NCBI GenBank assembly: GCA_028865095.1
Contig: JAGWLA010000002.1
Span: forward strand, 49,319-113,318
Source: Patescibacteria group bacterium
GTDB lineage: Bacteria; Patescibacteriota; Minisyncoccia; Phycocordibacterales; PALSA-1337
Direction: 5' to 3'
DNA: 64,000 nucleotides
Shown: in pieces, positions 10,451-43,637 of the stretch
Position numbering within the stretch: the stretch's first letter is position 1
How the letters are laid out: every line of letters begins with the position of its first letter
Made by a program: the position numbers and the translations under genes
Notes under the pieces: model-generated
What the model was told of the DNA's origin: nothing
The model's database searches: none
The model's input: only the letters and a program-made list of their open reading frames with translations

Positions 10451-11314
10451 ATGTACACGACACAACTTTTACCTGTCATGATTAGCAAAAAGATATTATC
10501 GAATGTCGAATCGAAGCCGTATTTCCAAAAAGGCGATTTTGTTCTTTATCATGGGGATTCTTTGAATGTTCTGGCTCAGTTGCCGGAGAATTCTATAGAT
10601 ATGATATTTGCAGATCCGCCATACAACCTTTCAAACGGGGGTTTTAGCGTCCATGCAGGCAAAATGGTTAGTGTGAACAAAGGTGACTGGGACAAGAGTA
10701 AAGGATTCAAGGATGATTATGATTTTCATTATCGCTGGCTGGAGGCTTGTAAGCGCATACTGAAGCCAAATGGAACACTTTGGGTTAGTGGAACGTATCA
10801 TTCCATATATCAATGTGGCCATGCGCTTCAGGCGCTTGGTTATCATATCCTGAATGATATTTCTTGGTTTAAGCCGAATGCTTCACCGAACCTAAGTTGC
10901 AGATTTTTCACTGCAAGCCACGAGACGATCATTTGGGCTAGGAAGGACAAGAAGGGGAAACACACTTTTAACTATGAATGGATGAAGAATAAGGAATGGC
11001 CAAGCGACTTTTTTAAGAATCCTAATAAACAGATGAGGAGTGTTTGGCATATACCAGACGTAGAGGATGTTTGGACTGTCGGTACTCCCAAAAGGGAAGA
11101 GAAAACGTTTGGAAAACATCCTACACAGAAGCCGCTGGAACTTCTCCGTAGGATCGTGCTTGCAAGCACAAATAGGGGTAATATAGTCCTTGACCCATTC
11201 ACTGGCAGTTCGACTACGGGAATAGCCTCGATCATGAATGGTCGAAAGTTTGTCGGTATAGATACTACGAAGGATTTTCTTGAGCTTTCAAAGAAGCGAT
11301 TACTAGAATTATAG
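10451..11314 (+). CDS. type II DNA methyltransferase, beta-class amino-MTase (N6-adenine or N4-cytosine)
   Basis: Motif IV DPPY (IFADPPYNLS) precedes motif I (IVLDPFTGSSTTGIA) in a beta-class permutation. The gene sits in a low-GC (about 40%) segment. Confidence 0.8.
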   Translation: MYTTQLLPVMISKKILSNVESKPYFQKGDFVLYHGDSLNVLAQLPENSIDMIFADPPYNLSNGGFSVHAGKMVSVNKGDWDKSKGFKDDYDFHYRWLEACKRILKPNGTLWVSGTYHSIYQCGHALQALGYHILNDISWFKPNASPNLSCRFFTASHETIIWARKDKKGKHTFNYEWMKNKEWPSDFFKNPNKQMRSVWHIPDVEDVWTVGTPKREEKTFGKHPTQKPLELLRRIVLASTNRGNIVLDPFTGSSTTGIASIMNGRKFVGIDTTKDFLELSKKRLLEL

Positions 11315-13918: not shown

Positions 13919-14422
13919 ATGACCCTGATTTCCACCTGGAAAGATCCCGACGGACACATGGTGCGCTTCGAATATGAGGATGCGGATGATTTCAGCATGC
14001 TGGACAAGAGCAAATGCCGCCAAGTGTATGGCGTCTGCTTCTGTGATGGCAAACTGGTCATAGGCCGCGGCGGGCGCAAGGGGGATTGGGGCCTCATAGG
14101 CGGGACCATAGAGCCTGGAGAGACATTCGAGGAGACTCTGAAGCGCGAGGTTCAAGAAGAGTCCAATATGGAGGTCCTTACCGCCAAACCAATCGGATAT
14201 CAGAAGGCTGTCGATACCCGTGACGGTTCATGGGTATACCAACTCCGTTATGTTTGTCGAGTGCAGCCGTATGGTCCGTTCACCGGCGATCCTGATGGTG
14301 GCAGTATACAGGAGATCAAGCTCATAGATCCCGCCGACTATCGCACATACTTCGATTGGGGAGAGACCGGTGAACGGATGATACATAGATCGATCGAGTC
14401 GATTGAAAGATTATCAAAATAA
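13919..14422 (+). CDS. NUDIX hydrolase
   Basis: Nudix box GGTIEPGETFEETLKREVQEESNMEV (Gx5Ex7REUxEExGU). Start placed at MTLISTW. Confidence 0.7.
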   Translation: MTLISTWKDPDGHMVRFEYEDADDFSMLDKSKCRQVYGVCFCDGKLVIGRGGRKGDWGLIGGTIEPGETFEETLKREVQEESNMEVLTAKPIGYQKAVDTRDGSWVYQLRYVCRVQPYGPFTGDPDGGSIQEIKLIDPADYRTYFDWGETGERMIHRSIESIERLSK

Positions 14423-14432
14423 GCAGTCAAAC

Positions 14433-14885
14433 ATGCCCACCCCACGCTCTCAGCGGAGCTACTGGCTCATCAAATCCGAAGGGGATTGCTACTCGATCGA
14501 CGACTTGCGGCGCGACCGGCGCACGGCGTGGACGGGCATACGCAATTATCAGGCCAGGAACTACATGCGAGACATGAAGCCGGGCGACCTCCTGCTCTTC
14601 TACCATTCCATGGCCGACCCCACCGGCATATACGGCATCGCCAAGGTCGCGAGCGCGCCGTATGCCGACCCGACCGCTCTCGACCCGAAGGACGAGCATT
14701 ATGACCCGAAGCGCCCGTGGGTATGCGTGGACGTGGCCTTCGTCAAGAAGCTCGCCGCTCCGGTCTCGCTTGCAGAGATCAAGGCCGATCCTGCGCTCCG
14801 GCATATGCTCGTCGCCCGGCGCGGCCAGCGCCTGTCCGTCATGCCCGTCGAGGAGGCGCATTTCAAGAAGGTGGAGGCTATGTGA
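14433..14885 (+). CDS. EVE domain (PUA-like) protein
   Basis: YWLIKSEG...WTGIRNYQARNYMRDMKPGDLLLFYHS...GIYGIAKV matches the EVE/Thy28-like PUA fold that binds modified bases. Confidence 0.6.
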   Translation: MPTPRSQRSYWLIKSEGDCYSIDDLRRDRRTAWTGIRNYQARNYMRDMKPGDLLLFYHSMADPTGIYGIAKVASAPYADPTALDPKDEHYDPKRPWVCVDVAFVKKLAAPVSLAEIKADPALRHMLVARRGQRLSVMPVEEAHFKKVEAM

Positions 14886-35859: not shown

Positions 35860-36810
35860 ATGGAACTCGTAAGGGGCTTCAGTCAGCTTACGAAATCCGA
35901 CTCTGACATAGCCGGCGGGAAAGGTGCGTCTCTGGGCGAGATGACCGCCGCCGGGATACCCGTGCCGCCCGGCTTCGTCGTGCTGTCGGCCTCATTCGAG
36001 CGGTTCATCGAAGAGACCGGTCTGACGCAGGAGATCGACGCGGCATTGCATGCGGTCGACCACAAGGAGATCCATACCGTCGAGAACGCTTCCGAGAGGA
36101 TCCAGGCCCTGATCCTCGCGGCCGAGATGCCGAAGGACATAGCCTCCGAGATCGAGAAGGCATTCAAGGGATTGGGCGCGCCCTATGTGGCGGTCCGCTC
36201 GTCCGCGACCGCCGAAGACTCTTCCATGGCCGCGTGGGCCGGGCAGCTTGACAGCTATCTGAATACGACGGAAAAGGACCTGCTCGAGAAAGTGAAGCGC
36301 TGCTGGGCATCGCTGTTCACGCCGCGCGCCATCTTCTATCGCTTCGAGAAAGGTCTGCACGCGGCCAAGATCTCCGTGGCCGTCGTCGTCCAGAAGATGG
36401 TCGCCTCGGAGAAGTCCGGCATCGCCTTCTCTGTCCATCCGGTGACAGAAGACCACAACCAGCTCATCATCGAAGCGGGCTTCGGCCTCGGTGAAGCTAT
36501 CGTCTCCGGCCAGATAACGCCGGATAGCTATGTGGTGGAGAAAAAGCCGAGAAGGATCGTGGATATCAGCGTCTCCGAGCAGACGAAAGGGCTCTTCAGG
36601 CGGGACGGCGGCGGGAACGAATGGAAGGGGCTGGGCAAGCTCGGCGCCTCGCAAGTCTTGGATGAGGCCGCGATCCTGGATCTAGCGGAGCTCGTGGTGA
36701 AGATAGAGAGGCATTACGGCTTTCCCTGCGACATCGAATGGGCATACGAGGACGGGAGATTCTACATCGTCCAGAGCAGGCCGATCACGACGCTGCAAAA
36801 GAAACAATGA
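35860..36810 (+). CDS. PEP-synthase/PPDK-type N-terminal ATP-grasp (nucleotide-binding) domain protein, stand-alone
   Basis: PPDK_N-like start (DIAGGKGASLGEMTAAGIPVPPGFVV), AVRSSATAEDSSMAAWAGQ, ATP-grasp body to the C-terminus (DIEWAYEDGRFYIVQSRPIT). No swivel His domain in this ORF. Stop overlaps the next start (ATGA). Confidence 0.7.
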   Translation: MELVRGFSQLTKSDSDIAGGKGASLGEMTAAGIPVPPGFVVLSASFERFIEETGLTQEIDAALHAVDHKEIHTVENASERIQALILAAEMPKDIASEIEKAFKGLGAPYVAVRSSATAEDSSMAAWAGQLDSYLNTTEKDLLEKVKRCWASLFTPRAIFYRFEKGLHAAKISVAVVVQKMVASEKSGIAFSVHPVTEDHNQLIIEAGFGLGEAIVSGQITPDSYVVEKKPRRIVDISVSEQTKGLFRRDGGGNEWKGLGKLGASQVLDEAAILDLAELVVKIERHYGFPCDIEWAYEDGRFYIVQSRPITTLQKKQ

Positions 36811-37835
36811 GGCTTCTTCTGACCAAATCTTTCTCCCGGGAGCACTCGCTCTTCTACTGCTACGTCTGGAACGATAGCGACATGATTGGACTTCCGAAAT
36901 ACGCCGACATGAGCCCGAACTCGCTCTTCCAAGGCGAGGGCAGAGGGAAGAGATTATCGGTCTGGTACAACCAGGCGGAATTGGATATGTTGTTCGGAAA
37001 TATCGAGAAGAAGATAAGCGCTGATCCTCGATATTTTGCGAATGCTAAAAGCGAATTCTACAAATGGTGGGATCTGCTCCTTCCTTACATAAAGAAAGAG
37101 AAGAAGATCGGATCGATAGACTGTATTGAAGATTTTTATGACATATTTGTGAAATGGTGGTCGCCCATGGCCTCGATCATATATATCCCTGATATGAAGG
37201 ACGCACCGGAGGATATCAAAAAGGAAGCTTTCAAGATCCGCGACGAGACCCAGCATTATTCAGATGATGGCGATAGGCTCTTCATTGAATTCTTCCTTGC
37301 ACATTACCCGGAATATACGGACATCGCTTATGTGATATCTCCAACAGAGGTATTTTCGCTCAAGGATGGGCCTTTGAGCCAGCAAGCTCTAGCCGAGATC
37401 AGAAAAAGGCTAGACGGATACATCGTGCACAAAGGGAAGCTGTACCTTGCAAGCGAACTGGACAAAGTCCTTGAAGCCAATAAGCTCGAATTAGAGAAGC
37501 CTAAAACCGAGGATTTGAAAGAGATAAAAGGCGTGCCGGCTAGCAAAGGCAAAGCGAAAGGACCCATCAAGCTCGTCCTTTACAAAGAGCAGATAAAGAC
37601 AGTGAAAGAAGGCGATATACTCGTCACAGAGATGACGTCTCCGGATTTTGTGCCTGCCATGAAGAGATCGGCAGCCATCATTACCGACGAAGGCGGGATA
37701 ACTTGTCATGCTGCTATTGCCTCAAGGGAACTTGGAAAACCATGCATCATAGGTACCAAAATCGCTACGCAGGTCTTCAAGGACGGCGACCTGGTCGAAG
37801 TGGATGCGGACAGAGGGCTGGTAAGGAAGATTTAA
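36807..37835 (+). CDS. phosphotransferase subunit: unknown about 240-aa substrate-type domain plus C-terminal PEP-utilising-enzyme mobile (phospho-His swivel) domain
   Basis: C-terminal motif LVTEMTSPDFVPAMKRSAAIITDEGGITCHAAIASRELGKPCIIG matches the GGxTSHAAI[IV]ARE swivel-His domain with the catalytic His retained. The N-terminal domain (REHSLFYCYVWNDSD...WYNQAELD...) is unassigned. Lower GC than the flanks. Confidence 0.65.
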   Translation: MRLLLTKSFSREHSLFYCYVWNDSDMIGLPKYADMSPNSLFQGEGRGKRLSVWYNQAELDMLFGNIEKKISADPRYFANAKSEFYKWWDLLLPYIKKEKKIGSIDCIEDFYDIFVKWWSPMASIIYIPDMKDAPEDIKKEAFKIRDETQHYSDDGDRLFIEFFLAHYPEYTDIAYVISPTEVFSLKDGPLSQQALAEIRKRLDGYIVHKGKLYLASELDKVLEANKLELEKPKTEDLKEIKGVPASKGKAKGPIKLVLYKEQIKTVKEGDILVTEMTSPDFVPAMKRSAAIITDEGGITCHAAIASRELGKPCIIGTKIATQVFKDGDLVEVDADRGLVRKI

Positions 37836-37863
37836 AGCGGCCCATTAGGGTATAATCTATCCA

Positions 37864-38910
37864 ATGCGCAGGAAGAGGAATCTAGAGAAAGCCTATACGC
37901 GGGAGCACTCGCTCTTCTATTGCATGGCCTGGAGCGAATCCGACAGGTTCTCGAAGGGGTGGGGAGACGCCGGTTCGCTGTCATTGTTCATCGGGGAAGG
38001 CGCATCGAAGAAGATATCGGTGTGGTATGACCAGCGGGAGCTCGACGAGTATTACGAAGCTTTTGCCAAGAGGTTCCGGGACGAGCCGGGCCGCTTCTCT
38101 TCGATGAGAGAAGATTTCCGCGCCTATTGGGCCGAATGGCTCGATCTCATCCGTGGCACGAAGAGGATCGAGACCGTGGACGATCTCGAGCATATGTATC
38201 ATCTGTATATAAGATGGTGGACGATCACCTCAGATTTCTATTGCGTGCCCGAATTGCCTGGCGCGCCGGCTTCTTCGAAGAGAGACGCGATGAAGATACG
38301 GGAAGAGACCCAGGAATATACGGAATTCGGGGACGACGCCTTCCGTTCCTTCATCGCCTCCAAGTTCCCGGAATATTCCCGGCTGGCGTACGTCATGGCC
38401 CCGCAAGAGGCTTTCTTGCTCAAATACAGGAGATTGCGTCCGCGGGAAGTGTCCGAGATCGAGAGCAGGCTCGGCGGCTATGCGATCATCGACAGCCAGA
38501 TCTATCCCAAAGCCGGCCTGAAGCGGCTGGCGCGCGAATATGATTTCGAGCTGAAGCCTGTCACGGCGGCCCGGAAAGGCGCGATCAAAGGCAGTCCGGC
38601 GTCCAAAGGCCGCGCGACCGGCAGGGTAAGGCTGCTCCTCTTCAAGGACCAGCTCCCGCGGTTCAAGGAAGGGGAAGTCCTCGTGACCGAGATGACCTCC
38701 CCCGACTTCGTCCCGGCCATGAAGAAGGCGGCGGCCATCGTCACCGACGAAGGCGGGATAACCTGTCATGCCGCCATCGCTTCCCGCGAGCTCGGCAAGC
38801 CCTGCGTCATCGGCACAAAAACGGCTACGCAGATCCTGAAGGACGGCGACCTGGTCGAAGTGGATGCGGATGGGGGAGTGGTGAGGGTCATGAGCTGGAC
38901 GAGTCTTTAG
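37864..38910 (+). CDS. paralogous phosphotransferase subunit (unknown N-terminal domain plus PEP-utilising His swivel domain)
   Basis: Same architecture and colinear motifs as 36807-37835 (REHSLFYCMAWSESD, WYDQRELDEYY, VTEMTSPDFVPAMKKAAAIVTDEGGITCHAAIASRELGKPCVIG) but high GC. Confidence 0.65.
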   Translation: MRRKRNLEKAYTREHSLFYCMAWSESDRFSKGWGDAGSLSLFIGEGASKKISVWYDQRELDEYYEAFAKRFRDEPGRFSSMREDFRAYWAEWLDLIRGTKRIETVDDLEHMYHLYIRWWTITSDFYCVPELPGAPASSKRDAMKIREETQEYTEFGDDAFRSFIASKFPEYSRLAYVMAPQEAFLLKYRRLRPREVSEIESRLGGYAIIDSQIYPKAGLKRLAREYDFELKPVTAARKGAIKGSPASKGRATGRVRLLLFKDQLPRFKEGEVLVTEMTSPDFVPAMKKAAAIVTDEGGITCHAAIASRELGKPCVIGTKTATQILKDGDLVEVDADGGVVRVMSWTSL

Positions 38911-38975: not shown

Positions 38976-39746
38976 TCAGTTCGATTGGCGCTCGAGCCAC
39001 ACGACCTCTTCGGGCGTGAGGGCTCGGGAGCACCCGTACGGCACCGGGTTCTGCAGGCGGTGCAGGCATTTGTTGACCCAACTTTGAGGGTCGATGGCCT
39101 TGAAGCCCATGGGATCGTCTTCCGCGGCGCGGAATGCCGGTCCGAGGCCTTTCTTGCGGTCGTGCTTCTTCACGAAGCCGAACCAGCAAGCGGCTTCGAA
39201 CAGCGAGCGTGCCTCTTCCCGGGCCATATATGCCCCCTCATAGAGCTCTCCTTTTTCGAGAAGGAGAGTCATGCGCGCCAGGTCCTCTATGAGCCAGAGG
39301 AATAGGCGCTTCAGGCCTGCCTCGTCGGCGGGGAACTGCCCTTTCGTCATGGGGTGCGATAACAGCAGGCGATACATCGCTCCCTGGAAACGCCCGATGA
39401 ACCGGTCGTAGAGACGACCGAGCGATCCGATGGCGATAAAACAAGCTATCGCATCGAGACCTCCCAGTACCGAATCCACCCGCTCCTCCGTCGGGGAAGA
39501 GACTTTTCCTGTGAGCGCTGCGACCAGGCTCATGATGCCTAACAGCATCATTGCGAGGAGGCCTACCCGGATGTCCCCGAGGGAGCCCCTCTTCTCGAGC
39601 CATTTATGCCCCCACACCGGGTCGAACCAGTTTGCTTTCTTCCAGGCGTCGCGGACATAGCGAGGAAACACCCCCGCCTCCGCCAGCTTGAACATGTCAG
39701 ATTCGCCGCCGTGAGGGCCGATAGGCCCGCTTTCGTTCGTTTTCAT
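38976..39746 (-). CDS. hypothetical membrane-associated protein
   Basis: 256-aa ORF with one or two hydrophobic segments (VGLLAMMLLGIMSLVAALTG, VLGGLDAIACFIAIGSL). No recognisable family. Confidence 0.35.
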   Translation of the reverse strand: MKTNESGPIGPHGGESDMFKLAEAGVFPRYVRDAWKKANWFDPVWGHKWLEKRGSLGDIRVGLLAMMLLGIMSLVAALTGKVSSPTEERVDSVLGGLDAIACFIAIGSLGRLYDRFIGRFQGAMYRLLLSHPMTKGQFPADEAGLKRLFLWLIEDLARMTLLLEKGELYEGAYMAREEARSLFEAACWFGFVKKHDRKKGLGPAFRAAEDDPMGFKAIDPQSWVNKCLHRLQNPVPYGCSRALTPEEVVWLERQSN

Positions 39747-40131: not shown

Positions 40132-41673
40132 TTAAGCGAAGCCCGGGAAGAAGTCGGTCTTGATGCGCCGGCGCGGCACCCCCATGTCCGTCAAGAGATG
40201 CTCGCAGGACGTGACGAAGGATTGGGGCCCCGATATGTAGAAGATGCGCTCGCGGTAGTCGGGGATCTCTTCCTCGATGGTCTCCGGGCCGATATAGCCC
40301 GTGCGGCCCCTCCAGCCCGCCGGGACGCGGGCGGCGTCGGTCAGGGTGCAGACGGTCTTCATGCCGAGCTTCTCGTATGCTTCTTCGAGGACGTCGGCGT
40401 AAGCGATCTCTTCCATGCGCTTGTTGGAATAGACGAGGACCATGTCGCGCTTCTCGCCCGCGTCGAGGGCGTGCTTGATCATGCTCCGGAAGGGCGTGAT
40501 GCCGATGCCGCCGGCCAGGAAGGCCACTTTGGCGCGGCGGTCGCGGGGAAGGGTGAAGTCGCCCGCCAGCTGGCCCGCCATGATGGTGGCGCCGTCGTCG
40601 AGCTCGGCCAGGGCTTTCTTGAAGGAGCTGGGCTTGTCGTAGAATTTTATGCCCAGGAGCAGGTGCTTCTCGGTGGGCGAGTTGGCGAGGGTGAAATAGC
40701 GCCGGTTGCCGCGGCTGTCGGCTTTGCGGTGGGCCAGGGTCCATTCCATGTACTGGCCGGGCTTGAACGAGACCGGGCGGTCGGCTTCGAAGGCGAATTC
40801 GCCCGTGTCGGCGGCGGCTTTCTCGGCTTTGACCAGGCGCAGGACGTACTTGCCTTTGGGGCTCAAGGCGTATGAAAGGAGGTTGCCGATGCAGAGGGCC
40901 AGCTCGGGGGTCGAATAGATCGCGCCGATATGCACCGCCGGCGCATAGAGGGCGCCCACGAAAGCGCCGTAAGCGATGCGGCGGGCGCGGGTCGGCGGCG
41001 TGGTGAGGGGCTCCGTCAGCATGACGGTCGCGAAGAAGACGAACGGCGAGTCGATGAAGACCTCTTTGAGGGCGCCGGACAGGCCCATGCCGGAGACGGC
41101 CGTGAAGAGGATGGCGGCCAGGGCGATGGCGGCGAAGGATATGACGAGGTCGAAGCGGTGGATCTTCCTGACGATGAGCAGGCCTCCGATGGCCACGAAC
41201 GGCAGCATGAAGAGGGTGCCGACCCACCAGCTGGCGGAAGCTCCGATGAAGAGGCCGGTGAGGGCGACGGCGATGGCGGCGGGATTGAAAAGGTGCTTCT
41301 TGCCGATGGCCAGGATGAACTTGGAGGACATGGCCAGGATCGGCGCCCAGACGAGCAGGGGGAGGTCGGAGAGGTATTCCGATGCGGCGTGCGGCGGGCT
41401 GATGATGAGGGCCAGGATGAGGGCGGTGATATAGACGGATTCGACGTTCTCGTGCGTCTCGAAGACGACGGCGAAGAGCCTGTTCGCGAGCCAGGACAGC
41501 GCCAGGATGACGGCGGTGGAATAGAGGAGGGCCAGGGGCGAGAACGGCATGCGCCCGCCGGCGGCCAGGAGGGCCGCGATGGCCAGCCAGCCGATCAGGC
41601 AGTACATGACCAGCTTGTACATGGTCACTCTGTTCAGGACGCGGTCGATGGGGTCTATGAAGGCGCGGATCAT
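40132..41673 (-). CDS. polytopic membrane domain fused to FNR-like FAD/NAD(P)-binding oxidoreductase domain (transmembrane NAD(P)H-dependent reductase)
   Basis: N-terminal about 230 aa with 6-8 TM helices including an HLFNPAAIAVAL segment reminiscent of RnfD/NqrB-type proteins. C-terminal FAD_binding_6 (RRYFTLANSP, RxYS-type) and NAD_binding_1 (GGIGITPFRSM, YISGPQSF) domains. Confidence 0.6.
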   Translation of the reverse strand: MIRAFIDPIDRVLNRVTMYKLVMYCLIGWLAIAALLAAGGRMPFSPLALLYSTAVILALSWLANRLFAVVFETHENVESVYITALILALIISPPHAASEYLSDLPLLVWAPILAMSSKFILAIGKKHLFNPAAIAVALTGLFIGASASWWVGTLFMLPFVAIGGLLIVRKIHRFDLVISFAAIALAAILFTAVSGMGLSGALKEVFIDSPFVFFATVMLTEPLTTPPTRARRIAYGAFVGALYAPAVHIGAIYSTPELALCIGNLLSYALSPKGKYVLRLVKAEKAAADTGEFAFEADRPVSFKPGQYMEWTLAHRKADSRGNRRYFTLANSPTEKHLLLGIKFYDKPSSFKKALAELDDGATIMAGQLAGDFTLPRDRRAKVAFLAGGIGITPFRSMIKHALDAGEKRDMVLVYSNKRMEEIAYADVLEEAYEKLGMKTVCTLTDAARVPAGWRGRTGYIGPETIEEEIPDYRERIFYISGPQSFVTSCEHLLTDMGVPRRRIKTDFFPGFA

Positions 41674-42425
41674 GATGTATAGCGGAAGAAGCCGGCGGTC
41701 ATGGCGGCGATGCCGTCCGAGCCGATCTGGTAGCCTTCCAGGCCCGGCAGGCCGCCTATGAAGGATATGCCGTCGGCTCCCATGGCGAAGGCCGCGGTGG
41801 CGAAGCGGTCGGCGTCATATATGTCGGGGCCGACGACGGTCAGGCTGGCGACGTCCGTCAAAGGCCTGTCCTTGTCGAGCGGGTCGTATATGTGCTGGCC
41901 GCGGACGTAGGTGCCGGAGGTGGCGATGGCGGCGCCGGAAAGGCGGACGGTCTTGACGATCGCGCTCTGGTCGAACGGGCTGCGGATGCCGATCTCCCAC
42001 GGCTCGCCGCGCTCGTTCGTGCCGGACGCCTGGATGTCGCCGCCGGCGTCGACGAGGGAATCCGGGAACCCGGCGTCGGAGATCATCCGGGCGGCGCGGG
42101 CGATGGCCCAGCCTTTGACGAGGCCGGACGGGTCGAAGGAGCCCGAGCGGTCGACGATGTCGAAGCGCCCGCCCGTCTCCCGCTTGGTGCGCTCGGCTTC
42201 GGCCATGACCTCCTTCATGTCGGCGCTCCACTCCGCTTCAAGGATCTCCCCGCGGTTGATGCGGCTGATCTCGCTGCCGTCCTTGTAGGTGCTGAAGCGC
42301 TCGTCGACGGAGACGAAATAGGCGAACGCCGCTTCTGCGGCCGCGACGGCCGCCGCGCGCTTCCCGGCGGGCGCGACGATGCGGATGGTGACGGGCATTC
42401 CCATGATGATGCGGGTCTCATTCAT
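41670..42425 (-). CDS. apbE: FAD:protein FMN transferase (ApbE family)
   Basis: ApbE motifs MGMPVTIRI, FDPSGLVKGWA, DAGGDIQASG, AIATSGTY. Stop and start overlap the flanking genes, forming an operon. Confidence 0.75.
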   Translation of the reverse strand: MNETRIIMGMPVTIRIVAPAGKRAAAVAAAEAAFAYFVSVDERFSTYKDGSEISRINRGEILEAEWSADMKEVMAEAERTKRETGGRFDIVDRSGSFDPSGLVKGWAIARAARMISDAGFPDSLVDAGGDIQASGTNERGEPWEIGIRSPFDQSAIVKTVRLSGAAIATSGTYVRGQHIYDPLDKDRPLTDVASLTVVGPDIYDADRFATAAFAMGADGISFIGGLPGLEGYQIGSDGIAAMTAGFFRYTS

Positions 42426-42426
42426 G

Positions 42427-43008
42427 TCAGTTGGCGGCCTTGGACAGGGCGGAGGCCAAGGACTGGACGAAAGCCTGGCTCGTCTGGGTGGCGCCGGAGA
42501 CGGCGTCGACGTGGGCGCTCTGGGCTGTGACGGCTTCGCGGACGAGGGTCGGCAAGGAAGTCTGGCTGATGTACTTCGACGTGCCGCGGTCGCCCGGAGA
42601 CTGCAGGATCGATACGTCGGCGAGCGCGCCGCCCTTGATGACGGCCGCCACTTGGACGTTGCCGAAATAGGCGTCGGCGACCGTGCCGTCGTATGTGCCG
42701 TCTTTGAACGCGCCGCTCGAAGCGGCGGCAGGGGCCGGCGCAGGAGCCGGGGCCCGCGAGGGCGCGGGCGCAGGAGAGGGCTTCGCGGCCGCCGGCGCGG
42801 CCTTCGCGGGCGGAACGGCCGCTCTCGAGGGCGTCGACCCAGAGGACGGCCCTGAAGAGGCGGCAGGCGCCTTCGACGGAGGGATCGTCGCTACGGCGAT
42901 CGGCGCTCCGGACGGCGCGGCGCCTTCGGCTGAGCTCCCGAGGAATGCATATGCGGCGAATGCGACGACCACGGCTGCCGATAGGGCGAATCTTTTCATG
43001 TCTGGCAT
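42427..43008 (-). CDS. extracytoplasmic FMN-binding domain protein (flavinylation target, SGAT motif)
   Basis: Signal anchor (MKRFALSAAVVVAFAAYAFLG), Pro/Ala/Ser-rich linker, FMN_bind domain (DGTYDGTVADAYFGNVQVAAVIKGG...SILQSP) with the flavinylation motif DAVSGATQTS. Confidence 0.7.
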   Translation of the reverse strand: MPDMKRFALSAAVVVAFAAYAFLGSSAEGAAPSGAPIAVATIPPSKAPAASSGPSSGSTPSRAAVPPAKAAPAAAKPSPAPAPSRAPAPAPAPAAASSGAFKDGTYDGTVADAYFGNVQVAAVIKGGALADVSILQSPGDRGTSKYISQTSLPTLVREAVTAQSAHVDAVSGATQTSQAFVQSLASALSKAAN

Positions 43009-43103: not shown

Positions 43104-43637
43104 ATGAAGAAAGCTCTCATGCTGGCCGCGTCGGGCGGCCTGTTCGTGGCGCTCGCTGCTGCCTGCTGGCTCTGGCTGGCATATGGCAGATCGGCTGCGG
43201 AACGCGAAGTCCCGATAGATCCGGATGCGGATTATCGGGTCTCGCGGGTCGTCGACGGCGACACCTTCAAGGCGGAGGTCGAAGGCCGCGAGATCACGGT
43301 GCGCCTGCTCGGCGTCAACACCCCGGAGACCGTCGACCCTCGCAAAGCGGTGGAGTGCTATGGCCCCGAAGCGTCTGCGGAGACGAAGGCGCTCTTGAGC
43401 GGCCGCTCCGTCCGGCTGGCATTCAGCCCGGAGAAGGAGCACCGCGACAGATACGGGAGGTATCTCCTGTATGCCTACCGAGACGACGGCCTCCTGATCA
43501 ACCGGTCGCTCATCGAAGAAGGATATGCCAGGGAATACACGGTCGGGAAGGCGTATTCGCTGCACGCGGCGTTCAGGGACGCAGAAGCGGCGGCCAAAGC
43601 CGCCGGCAAGGGATTGTGGGGCGCGTGCGAGAAGTAG
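43104..43637 (+). CDS. thermonuclease (staphylococcal-nuclease-like, SNase) family, membrane-anchored or secreted
   Basis: Signal anchor, then SNase motifs VVDGDTF, VRLLGVNTPE, DRYGRYLLYAY, GYAREY. Confidence 0.75.
   Translation: MKKALMLAASGGLFVALAAACWLWLAYGRSAAEREVPIDPDADYRVSRVVDGDTFKAEVEGREITVRLLGVNTPETVDPRKAVECYGPEASAETKALLSGRSVRLAFSPEKEHRDRYGRYLLYAYRDDGLLINRSLIEEGYAREYTVGKAYSLHAAFRDAEAAAKAAGKGLWGACEK

Follow-up and report, generated by a model that had tools for sequence, protein, structure and literature searches.

A predicted NQR/RNF-like electron-transfer operon with a leaderless ApbE-family transferase in a Patescibacteria genome

The 64,000-nucleotide stretch of DNA analysed here (hereafter the window), taken from contig JAGWLA010000002.1 of the Patescibacteria assembly GCA_028865095.1, carries on its minus strand a compact set of three genes. 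They encode an FMN-binding (FMN_bind) protein, an ApbE-family FAD:protein FMN transferase and a reductase in which a membrane domain is fused to FNR-type domains (Table 1). An initial annotation, made from the letters of the sequence, had read this triad as a minimal route for electrons from NAD(P)H through the membrane to an extracytosolic flavoprotein. The coordinates and strands of the open reading frames (ORFs) come from the ORF list of the window, and domains were assigned with Pfam and NCBIfam models scored against their curated cut-offs. The genes had been described as three overlapping minus-strand genes; they are indeed tightly packed on that strand, but only the ApbE and reductase genes overlap, by the four nucleotides of an ATGA, which suggests translational coupling. 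A single nucleotide separates the FMN_bind stop codon from the ApbE start codon (TGA-c-ATG). The three products are deposited at NCBI, from a 126-kb contig of a Patescibacteria metagenome-assembled genome, as MDE2037944.1 (‘FMN-binding protein’), MDE2037943.1 (‘FAD:protein FMN transferase’) and MDE2037942.1 (‘oxidoreductase’). Since the ORFs are long, match their families strongly and have thousands of homologues, chance ORFs are not a concern.

Table 1. Coordinates of the operon, of its parts and of the divergent neighbouring gene in the window.
Feature	Coordinates	Strand	Details
FMN_bind protein gene	42427..43008	-	193 aa from ATG 43008; 190 aa from ATG 42999; PF04205
N-terminal signal anchor	42940..42999	-	MKRF + FALSAAVVVAFAAYAFL; predicted N-in, C-out
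Low-complexity Ala/Pro/Ser linker	42700..42936	-	about 79 aa between anchor and FMN domain
Flavinylation motif DAVSGAT	42487..42507	-	residues 168-174; FMN predicted on Thr174 (19 residues from the C-terminus)
ApbE-family FAD:protein FMN transferase gene	41670..42425	-	251 aa; PF02424
ATGA overlap, ApbE stop / reductase start	41670..41673	-	4 nt, from coordinates
Reductase fusion gene	40132..41673	-	513 aa; RnfD/NqrB-type membrane domain + FNR domain; PF00175
RnfD/NqrB-type membrane domain	40858..41673	-	residues 1-272; PF03116 below cut-off, PDB profile and fold matches
FNR-type FAD barrel + NAD(P)H Rossmann domain	40135..40857	-	residues 273-513; PF00175 E = 1.5e-16
Divergent SNase gene	43104..43637	divergent from operon	PF00565 E = 1e-20; hydrophobic N-terminus

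The FMN_bind protein matches PF04205 with 33.8 bits against a cut-off of 22 (E = 5.6e-8, residues 116-188). Of its two possible start codons, the one at 42999 (MKRFALS...) is more likely than the one at 43008, because it is used in MDE2037944.1 and fits the MKKFxLS N-termini of the homologues. The layout of the protein is common to the family: in 79/79 members a basic MKKF or MKRF is followed by a hydrophobic helix, a Ser/Thr/Pro/Ala linker and, as the last part, an FMN_bind domain of about 90 residues, and in all of them a motif of the form (D/N/Q/S/A)xx(S/T)GA(S/T) lies 18-21 residues from the C-terminus. The length of the linker varies from 23 to 120 residues in the homologues, with a median of about 60. 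The description of this protein as signal-anchored and carrying a flavinylation motif therefore stands, with a PF04205 score above cut-off, an N-terminal hydrophobic anchor and DAVSGAT at residues 168-174. Across 77 homologues, the eight residues that precede the anchor hold on average 2.05 Lys + Arg and 0.13 Asp + Glu, whereas the 15 residues that follow it hold 1.05 and 0.96, respectively; by the positive-inside rule, these flanking charges favour an N-in, C-out orientation. A Tat signal was considered and rejected, as the MKKF and MKRF N-termini offer KK or KR and no twin arginine.

A profile of the FMN_bind domain searched against the PDB retrieved the solved FMN-binding domain 8p2a_A as the best match (E = 2e-22), followed by 3o6u and 8p2b, and no NqrC or RnfG chain at E <= 1. 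The NCBIfam RnfG models reach about 15 bits around the flavinylation motif (cut-offs of 102-230), and the PplA model reaches 14.3 bits on the protein (cut-off of 325). Judged by these profiles, the FMN domain is a minimal FMN_bind domain and not a specific orthologue of RnfG or NqrC.

The second gene belongs, by family, to the ApbE transferases, as had been annotated: PF02424 is matched far above its cut-off (140.1 bits against 25.6, E = 1.2e-40), and the active- and metal-site motifs are kept. The segments ATSGTY, GQHIYDP and DADRFAT align with the TSG, HIxDP and DADxxxT motifs of solved ApbEs and are invariant in 25 family members. The ApbE family of this operon is nevertheless shortened: about 50 residues that solved ApbEs contain are missing from it, corresponding to roughly 106-154 in the E. 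coli chain.

In the C-terminal part of the reductase, PF00175 covers residues 385-490 with 61.4 bits against a cut-off of 22. The expected FNR motifs are in place, namely RRYFT (residues 324-328), GGIGITPF (388-395), YISGP (479-483) and the C-terminal DFFPGFA. They are conserved in 30 homologues, the RxYxT and GGxGxTP patterns together with a C-terminal aromatic residue being retained in the family. Partial NCBIfam matches of this region are to Hmp, GbcB, Fre and NqrF, and Foldseek retrieves flavohaemoglobin, the FAD/NADH domain of NqrF, cytochrome b5 reductase and Fre (E from 1e-13 to 1e-17), with NqrF no closer than the other FNR-family proteins. The above-cut-off PF00175 match, the two-domain FNR fold and the motifs agree with the initial description of a 513-residue protein whose membrane domain is fused to cytoplasmic FAD- and NAD(P)H-binding domains. 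The reductase contains four cysteines, none of them conserved, and the FMN_bind protein and ApbE contain none. As the triad proteins have no conserved Cys cluster, the chain has no Fe-S centre.

The membrane domain had been credited with an RnfD/NqrB-like flavour, an assignment that could have given way to a non-redox transporter family. From 25 family members we built a profile that covers residues 1-274 and searched it against the whole PDB. It retrieved solely three distinct sequences: the Azotobacter RnfD (8ahx_D, E = 6.9e-5) and two variants of the Vibrio cholerae NqrB (E = 0.054 for 7xk3_B and 0.071). With an AlphaFold2 model of the domain (pLDDT 83.6, pTM 0.84) as the query, the top 15 Foldseek matches in the PDB are all RnfD or NqrB (probability 1.00, query TM-score 0.52-0.69), the best being RnfD 8rbq_D with a TM-score of 0.69; urea and ammonium channels come next, at E values of about 1 and TM-scores of 0.41-0.51. 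The di-haem ferric reductase domain PF01794 gives no match on the 513-residue protein, and PF08030 reaches 17.8 bits against a cut-off of 22.2. Many homologues with 57-76% identity carry PF03116 (NQR2_RnfD_RnfE) in precomputed annotation. On this profile and model evidence, the domain is of RnfD/NqrB type and belongs neither to the ferric reductases nor to a transporter family, so that the suspected likeness is borne out despite a PF03116 score below cut-off in the window protein. The number of helices had to be corrected: the six to eight that were first proposed become about ten membrane helices plus an N-terminal amphipathic helix in the model.

Five motifs stand out in the membrane domain: NVES (residues 76-79), KKHLFNPAA (125-133), SASWW (146-150), TEPLTTPPT (220-228) and YSTPE (253-257). 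Lys/Arg-rich loops (KKH 125-127, RKIHR 169-173, RARR 229-232 and KGK 273-275) alternate with uncharged or acidic ones. Combined with the modelled helices, this alternation assigns the N-terminus and the FNR domain to the cytoplasm and puts SASWW and YSTPE on the outer side. Because SASWW lies 13 residues after FNPAA and resembles a remnant of the NqrB/RnfD SGAT motif, we considered obligatory flavinylation at this site and rejected it: the third position of SA(S/T)WW is Ser in 126, Thr in 58 and Asn in 12 of 196 sequences. The profile alignment further shows no equivalent of the long outer loop of NqrB. In the same alignment, the counterparts of the invariant E221 (TEP, region 40990-41016) are Asp346 of V. 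cholerae NqrB, within a TDP, and the TDP of RnfD. Asp346 has been linked to Na+ translocation.

A scan of species-representative genomes gave at least 597 stretches encoding relatives, and the best 80 of these were taken as related loci. Their sources are many Patescibacteria classes, Chloroflexota (among them the cultured Dictyobacter aurantiacus S27) and a single Thermoleophilia genome. A survey of the co-occurrence of the triad, which the initial annotation had put forward, shows the order FMN_bind-ApbE-reductase to be kept in 63/80 loci. Four more loci have all three genes in a variant arrangement (two with an extra FMN_bind gene, one with a split ApbE gene and one convergent). The remaining 13 comprise seven with FMN_bind and no adjacent ApbE, five with ApbE and no FMN_bind (three of these at a contig end) and one truncated locus with the reductase alone. 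Clustering of the neighbouring ORFs in the 80 loci revealed no conserved gene outside the triad, which argues for the triad as the functional unit. Two FMN_bind genes are found upstream of the reductase in loci L033, L051, L059 and L061, with no adjacent ApbE gene in L033 and L059.

This arrangement corresponds to a system that has already been named. According to Méheust et al. (2021, eLife; PMC8238504), an ‘NQR/RNF-like system’ is a flavinylation cluster in which a PF03116 NqrB/RnfD-like domain is fused to PF00175; 127 such clusters are given there, mainly from Actinobacteria and the candidate phyla radiation. Huang et al. (2024, mSystems; PMC11334425) present an AlphaFold-multimer model of the Ktedonobacter racemifer complex, in which the membrane domain is without the flavinylated Thr of NqrB/RnfD and the FMN site of the outer subunit is docked beside a flavin pocket of the membrane subunit. 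They suggest that this pocket, which binds flavin non-covalently, is sampled by the outer subunit's covalent FMN. In the window, a PF03116-type membrane domain is recognized through the PDB profile and Foldseek, PF00175 follows at the C-terminus of the same polypeptide, and the fusion gene is directly adjacent to both the ApbE and FMN_bind genes, where the definition allows a distance of five genes to either. As for an export signal, the anchor of the FMN_bind protein, preceded by Lys/Arg, provides one, and ApbE has none. In agreement with the 2024 model, there is no obligatory flavinylated Thr in the membrane domain, since SA(S/T)WW is variable and the outer loop of NqrB is missing. The sequence evidence thus supports the operon as a typical member of the known NQR/RNF-like system, and the initial reading was right but already published. 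The family is larger than the 127 published clusters. In addition to the genome scan, a profile search of 1.84 billion representative proteins gave 578 clusters at 50% identity (E <= 1e-30); among the matches listed, most of the best ones are 480-515 residues long. Cultured carriers of the system include D. aurantiacus and K. racemifer, and the triad is also present on the closed Patescibacteria chromosomes OY970175.1, OY970354.1 and OY970290.1.

Starting from these folds, motifs, topology signals and gene linkage, we consider it probable that the operon encodes an outward electron-transfer module of the NQR/RNF-like type with the following mechanism. On the cytoplasmic face, the C-terminal domain, which has the fold and the motifs of the FNR family, would oxidize NAD(P)H via its FAD. 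The electrons would then cross the RnfD/NqrB-type domain. Given its fold, haem is not expected in the reductase and, with neither Fe-S nor haem ligands in the membrane domain, one or more non-covalent flavins would have to carry the electrons; NqrB uses riboflavin. ApbE would link FMN covalently to Thr174, in the motif of the anchored and linker-tethered FMN_bind domain. This tethered FMN could dock on the outer face of the membrane domain, become reduced and pass its electrons to an extracytosolic acceptor; thanks to the long flexible linker, acceptors at a distance from the membrane would come within range of the reduced FMN domain. The acceptor would lie outside the operon, with ferric iron, free flavins or quinones, oxygen and envelope proteins as candidates. 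In sum, cytoplasmic reducing power would gain a one-way outlet that is independent of haem, quinone and Fe-S centres. The route predicted in this way is the one proposed in the initial annotation, and is the same as that published for the system (PMC8238504; PMC11334425).

Several points weigh against this reading. The PF03116 score of the window protein is 20.6 bits against a cut-off of 27.7 (residues 136-267), the flavin or flavins within the membrane are assumed, no electron acceptor is encoded nearby, and full-text literature searches found no experimental study of the NQR/RNF-like system. The ApbE protein raises a further difficulty. Neither the window protein nor any of 72 homologues has a signal peptide or a lipobox. 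Moreover, residue 15 of the window ApbE aligns with residue 29 of the signal-less crystallized Salmonella ApbE, which puts its start about 14 residues inside the mature enzyme. With no export signal and such a start, the transferase looks cytoplasmic while its presumed substrate looks exported. The characterized ApbEs whose substrates are extracytosolic are lipoproteins that are exported, and Salmonella ApbE expressed in the cytosol did not complement an apbE mutant; the known cytoplasmic ApbEs serve cytoplasmic substrates, for example the fumarate reductase of Klebsiella (reviewed in PMC12052999). The available parts of PMC8238504 and PMC11334425 apparently do not discuss leaderless ApbEs. 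For the proposed delivery of FMN to an exported protein, the transferase family is confirmed, and the missing export signal is a caveat that the initial annotation did not contain.

The window ApbE begins with MNETRIIMGMP and its homologues with MK(E/Q)TR(I/L)(I/L)MGMP, merely seven residues ahead of the first conserved strand. In 48 homologues, seven residues precede MGMP in the maximal ORF, and the longer upstream ORFs add non-hydrophobic residues. In the window, no stop codon interrupts the ApbE frame over the 155 codons upstream of the ATG (42425-42890, minus strand), where it overlaps the FMN_bind gene. As this upstream frame contains no ATG, GTG or TTG, it probably reflects an effect of GC content and not a longer protein. 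A hidden N-terminal extension was rejected, there being no upstream start codon and the low-GC homologues starting at the same MK(E/Q)TR. A fusion of FMN_bind and ApbE by programmed frameshift was also rejected, as the junctions vary from 4-nt overlaps to gaps of 1 to at least 30 nt, in differing frames. No second ApbE gene was found in the 64-kb window. We may ask how the mismatch between enzyme and substrate could be reconciled. Installation of FMN in the cytoplasm by the leaderless, shortened ApbE, before or during translocation of the C-terminal part of the FMN_bind protein (with its motif 18-21 residues from the end), is a scheme that we regard as rather unlikely. Other possible solutions are that ApbE leaves the cell by an unrecognized route, that the genome holds a second ApbE elsewhere, or that the FMN_bind domain is cytoplasmic.

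The last of these options can be extended into a chain that faces the cytoplasm throughout, in which the leaderless ApbE would flavinylate an FMN_bind domain that stays in the cytoplasm, tethered to the membrane by the N-terminal helix. This domain would relay electrons between the FNR domain and the RnfD-like domain, and the latter would then reduce a membrane or lipophilic acceptor. The missing ApbE export signal in 72/72 loci and the precedent of cytoplasmic ApbEs paired with cytoplasmic flavoproteins, as in the Klebsiella case above, speak for such a chain. The charges around the FMN_bind anchor favour the opposite topology, long Ser/Thr/Pro/Ala linkers are typical of envelope proteins, and Patescibacteria are generally not known to possess quinones. 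The published AlphaFold-multimer model (PMC11334425) also docks the FMN domain on the outer face. We hold the cytoplasm-facing chain to be improbable.

The membrane domain, which shares homology with NqrB and RnfD, raises in turn the question of whether NAD(P)H oxidation drives the movement of Na+ or H+, as in Na+-NQR and Rnf. The alignment of E221 with Asp346, a residue implicated in Na+ translocation, is a lead in this direction rather than a test. A cut-down ion pump or other ion-coupled device of this kind is still more doubtful, because no NqrD/E or RnfA/E genes stand beside the window triad or recur in the 80 loci, where a Fe-S centre and a U-shaped return path are equally missing, and because the loop that bears the covalent FMN of NqrB/RnfD is lacking, in our alignment as in PMC11334425. 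It is very unlikely that the triad serves to capture, reduce or import flavins for organisms unable to make them. ApbE homologues have been described as flavin-trafficking proteins in Treponema (PMC4436053; PMC4767422), and urea and ammonium channels are the next fold matches after RnfD/NqrB; these channel matches are weak, however (E of about 1 and TM-scores of 0.41-0.51, compared with 0.52-0.69 for RnfD/NqrB), and the fused NAD(P)H-binding FNR domain and the covalent-FMN motif in 79/79 partners point instead to electron transfer. Finally, Rnf is reversible (PMC12052999), and an external reductant might reduce the tethered FMN and the fusion protein reduce NAD(P)+. Such inward flow is scarcely credible: on general bioenergetic grounds nothing would drive the reduction of NAD(P)+, at about -320 mV, without ion coupling, and FNR fusions on membrane redox domains (NOX, Fre and MsrQ-like) work outward (PMC8238504).

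The locus opens no new category, since the definition of the three-gene system dates from 2021 and its modelling from 2024. Patescibacteria have few membrane redox devices, of which this module is one, and it is widespread there and in Chloroflexota. If the outward model is true, fermentative and host-dependent bacteria would have a way, free of haem, quinone and Fe-S cofactors, to reoxidize NAD(P)H with external acceptors or to reduce iron; Patescibacteria are not known to have haem or quinones. Cytoplasmic flavinylation, if it occurs, would be a new route to exported flavoproteins that dispenses with FAD export, and could explain how Patescibacteria assemble their only trans-membrane electron outlet. 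Together with the acceptor, the contrast between a leaderless ApbE and an exported-looking substrate is the main residual value of the locus, as a concrete question that is cheap to test.

As for the surroundings of the operon, the initial annotation had pointed to a divergently adjacent gene for a secreted thermonuclease. This SNase gene is real, but it occurs in 0/80 related loci, so that its adjacency is incidental and a functional link to the triad was rejected. A link to TrxR was rejected likewise, TrxR adjoining the triad solely in the two closest relatives (loci L001 and L004). Just downstream of the operon, a 256-residue ORF (38976-39746, minus strand) is matched by neither Pfam nor NCBIfam. 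Ahead of it, at 39905-39877, lies a strong sigma-70-like promoter match (11/12 positions), which suggests that this ORF is transcribed separately from the triad.

In the related loci, the neighbours that recur, each in 9-17 loci, are OmpR-type regulators accompanied by histidine kinases, ECF sigma factors and HlyD/ABC/MacB-type transporters. Since the clustering of neighbours gave only regulators and MacAB-type transporters, each at this frequency, a conserved acceptor gene was rejected. The modules of HlyD, an ABC ATPase and MacB/FtsX are sometimes accompanied by a small DUF5666-like protein, and their order and orientation vary. Regulator or transporter neighbours are found in L006, L013, L022, L023, L027, L031, L053, L054, L068, L079 and others, and may hint at an envelope-stress or efflux context. 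No regulator/kinase, ECF sigma or HlyD/MacB module lies near the triad in the window.

Two other regions of the window, apart from the operon, deserve mention. Between 10000 and 15000, the GC content falls to 0.40-0.45, compared with about 0.62 elsewhere. This island encodes an N6/N4 DNA methylase (10451-11314, E = 6e-57), an EVE-domain protein (14403-14885, E = 7e-54), a NUDIX protein, a weak PD-(D/E)XK match and a DndB-like protein below cut-off, and looks like a horizontally acquired DNA-modification or restriction island. On the plus strand, at 35860-38910, a PPDK_N ATP-grasp protein (316 residues) is followed by two paralogues of about 350 residues, each with a C-terminal PEP-utilizers mobile domain; by its domain matches, this is a split PEP-synthase-like arrangement in which the swivel-domain gene is duplicated.

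Comparison with the better-known electron-transfer systems helps to place the triad. With Na+-NQR it shares the NqrB fold, the FAD/NADH fold of NqrF and an FMN_bind partner with a flavinylation motif of the SGAT type. It is, however, without NqrA, NqrD, NqrE, the 2Fe-2S centre and the quinone site, and the periplasmic loop of NqrB with Thr236 is missing from its membrane domain. The FNR domain of the triad is fused directly to the B-type domain, its FMN domain is no specific NqrC orthologue, and electron flow is predicted to be one-way and outward, whereas it is U-shaped in Na+-NQR. Rnf supplies both the best sequence match (RnfD 8ahx_D, E = 6.9e-5) and the best fold match of the membrane domain, and its RnfG models give the weak matches around the flavinylation motif; the triad is nevertheless without RnfA, RnfB, RnfC and RnfE and has no ferredoxin or Fe-S modules.

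The logic of extracellular electron transfer in Listeria (Ndh2, EetA/B, DmkA/B, PplA and FmnB), in which cytoplasmic NADH feeds a surface flavoprotein flavinylated by ApbE and, through it, an external acceptor, is shared as well. There, a type II NADH dehydrogenase works with quinone at the membrane step, and both FmnB and PplA are lipoproteins, whereas the triad has a single flavin-only membrane-spanning polypeptide and a leaderless transferase. No Ndh2 or EetA/B gene was found in the neighbourhood of the operon, and the PplA model stays at the low score given above. The NOX, Fre and MsrQ-like proteins, such as Streptococcus pneumoniae NOX, also combine a membrane redox domain with a cytoplasmic FNR dehydrogenase domain, and SpNOX (8qta and 8qt6) is among the Foldseek matches of the full-length reductase model; the membrane domain of NOX is, however, a six-helix di-haem ferric-reductase domain, as opposed to the RnfD/NqrB type found here. 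Compared with the NQR/RNF-like system, nothing essential differs; what is added here, besides the larger family size, is the PF03116 score of the window protein just below cut-off and the leaderless, shortened state of the ApbE in this system. The two have in common the fusion of an NqrB/RnfD-like domain to PF00175, its place beside FMN_bind and ApbE genes, and an occurrence in the same phyla, the candidate phyla radiation and Chloroflexota such as Ktedonobacter.

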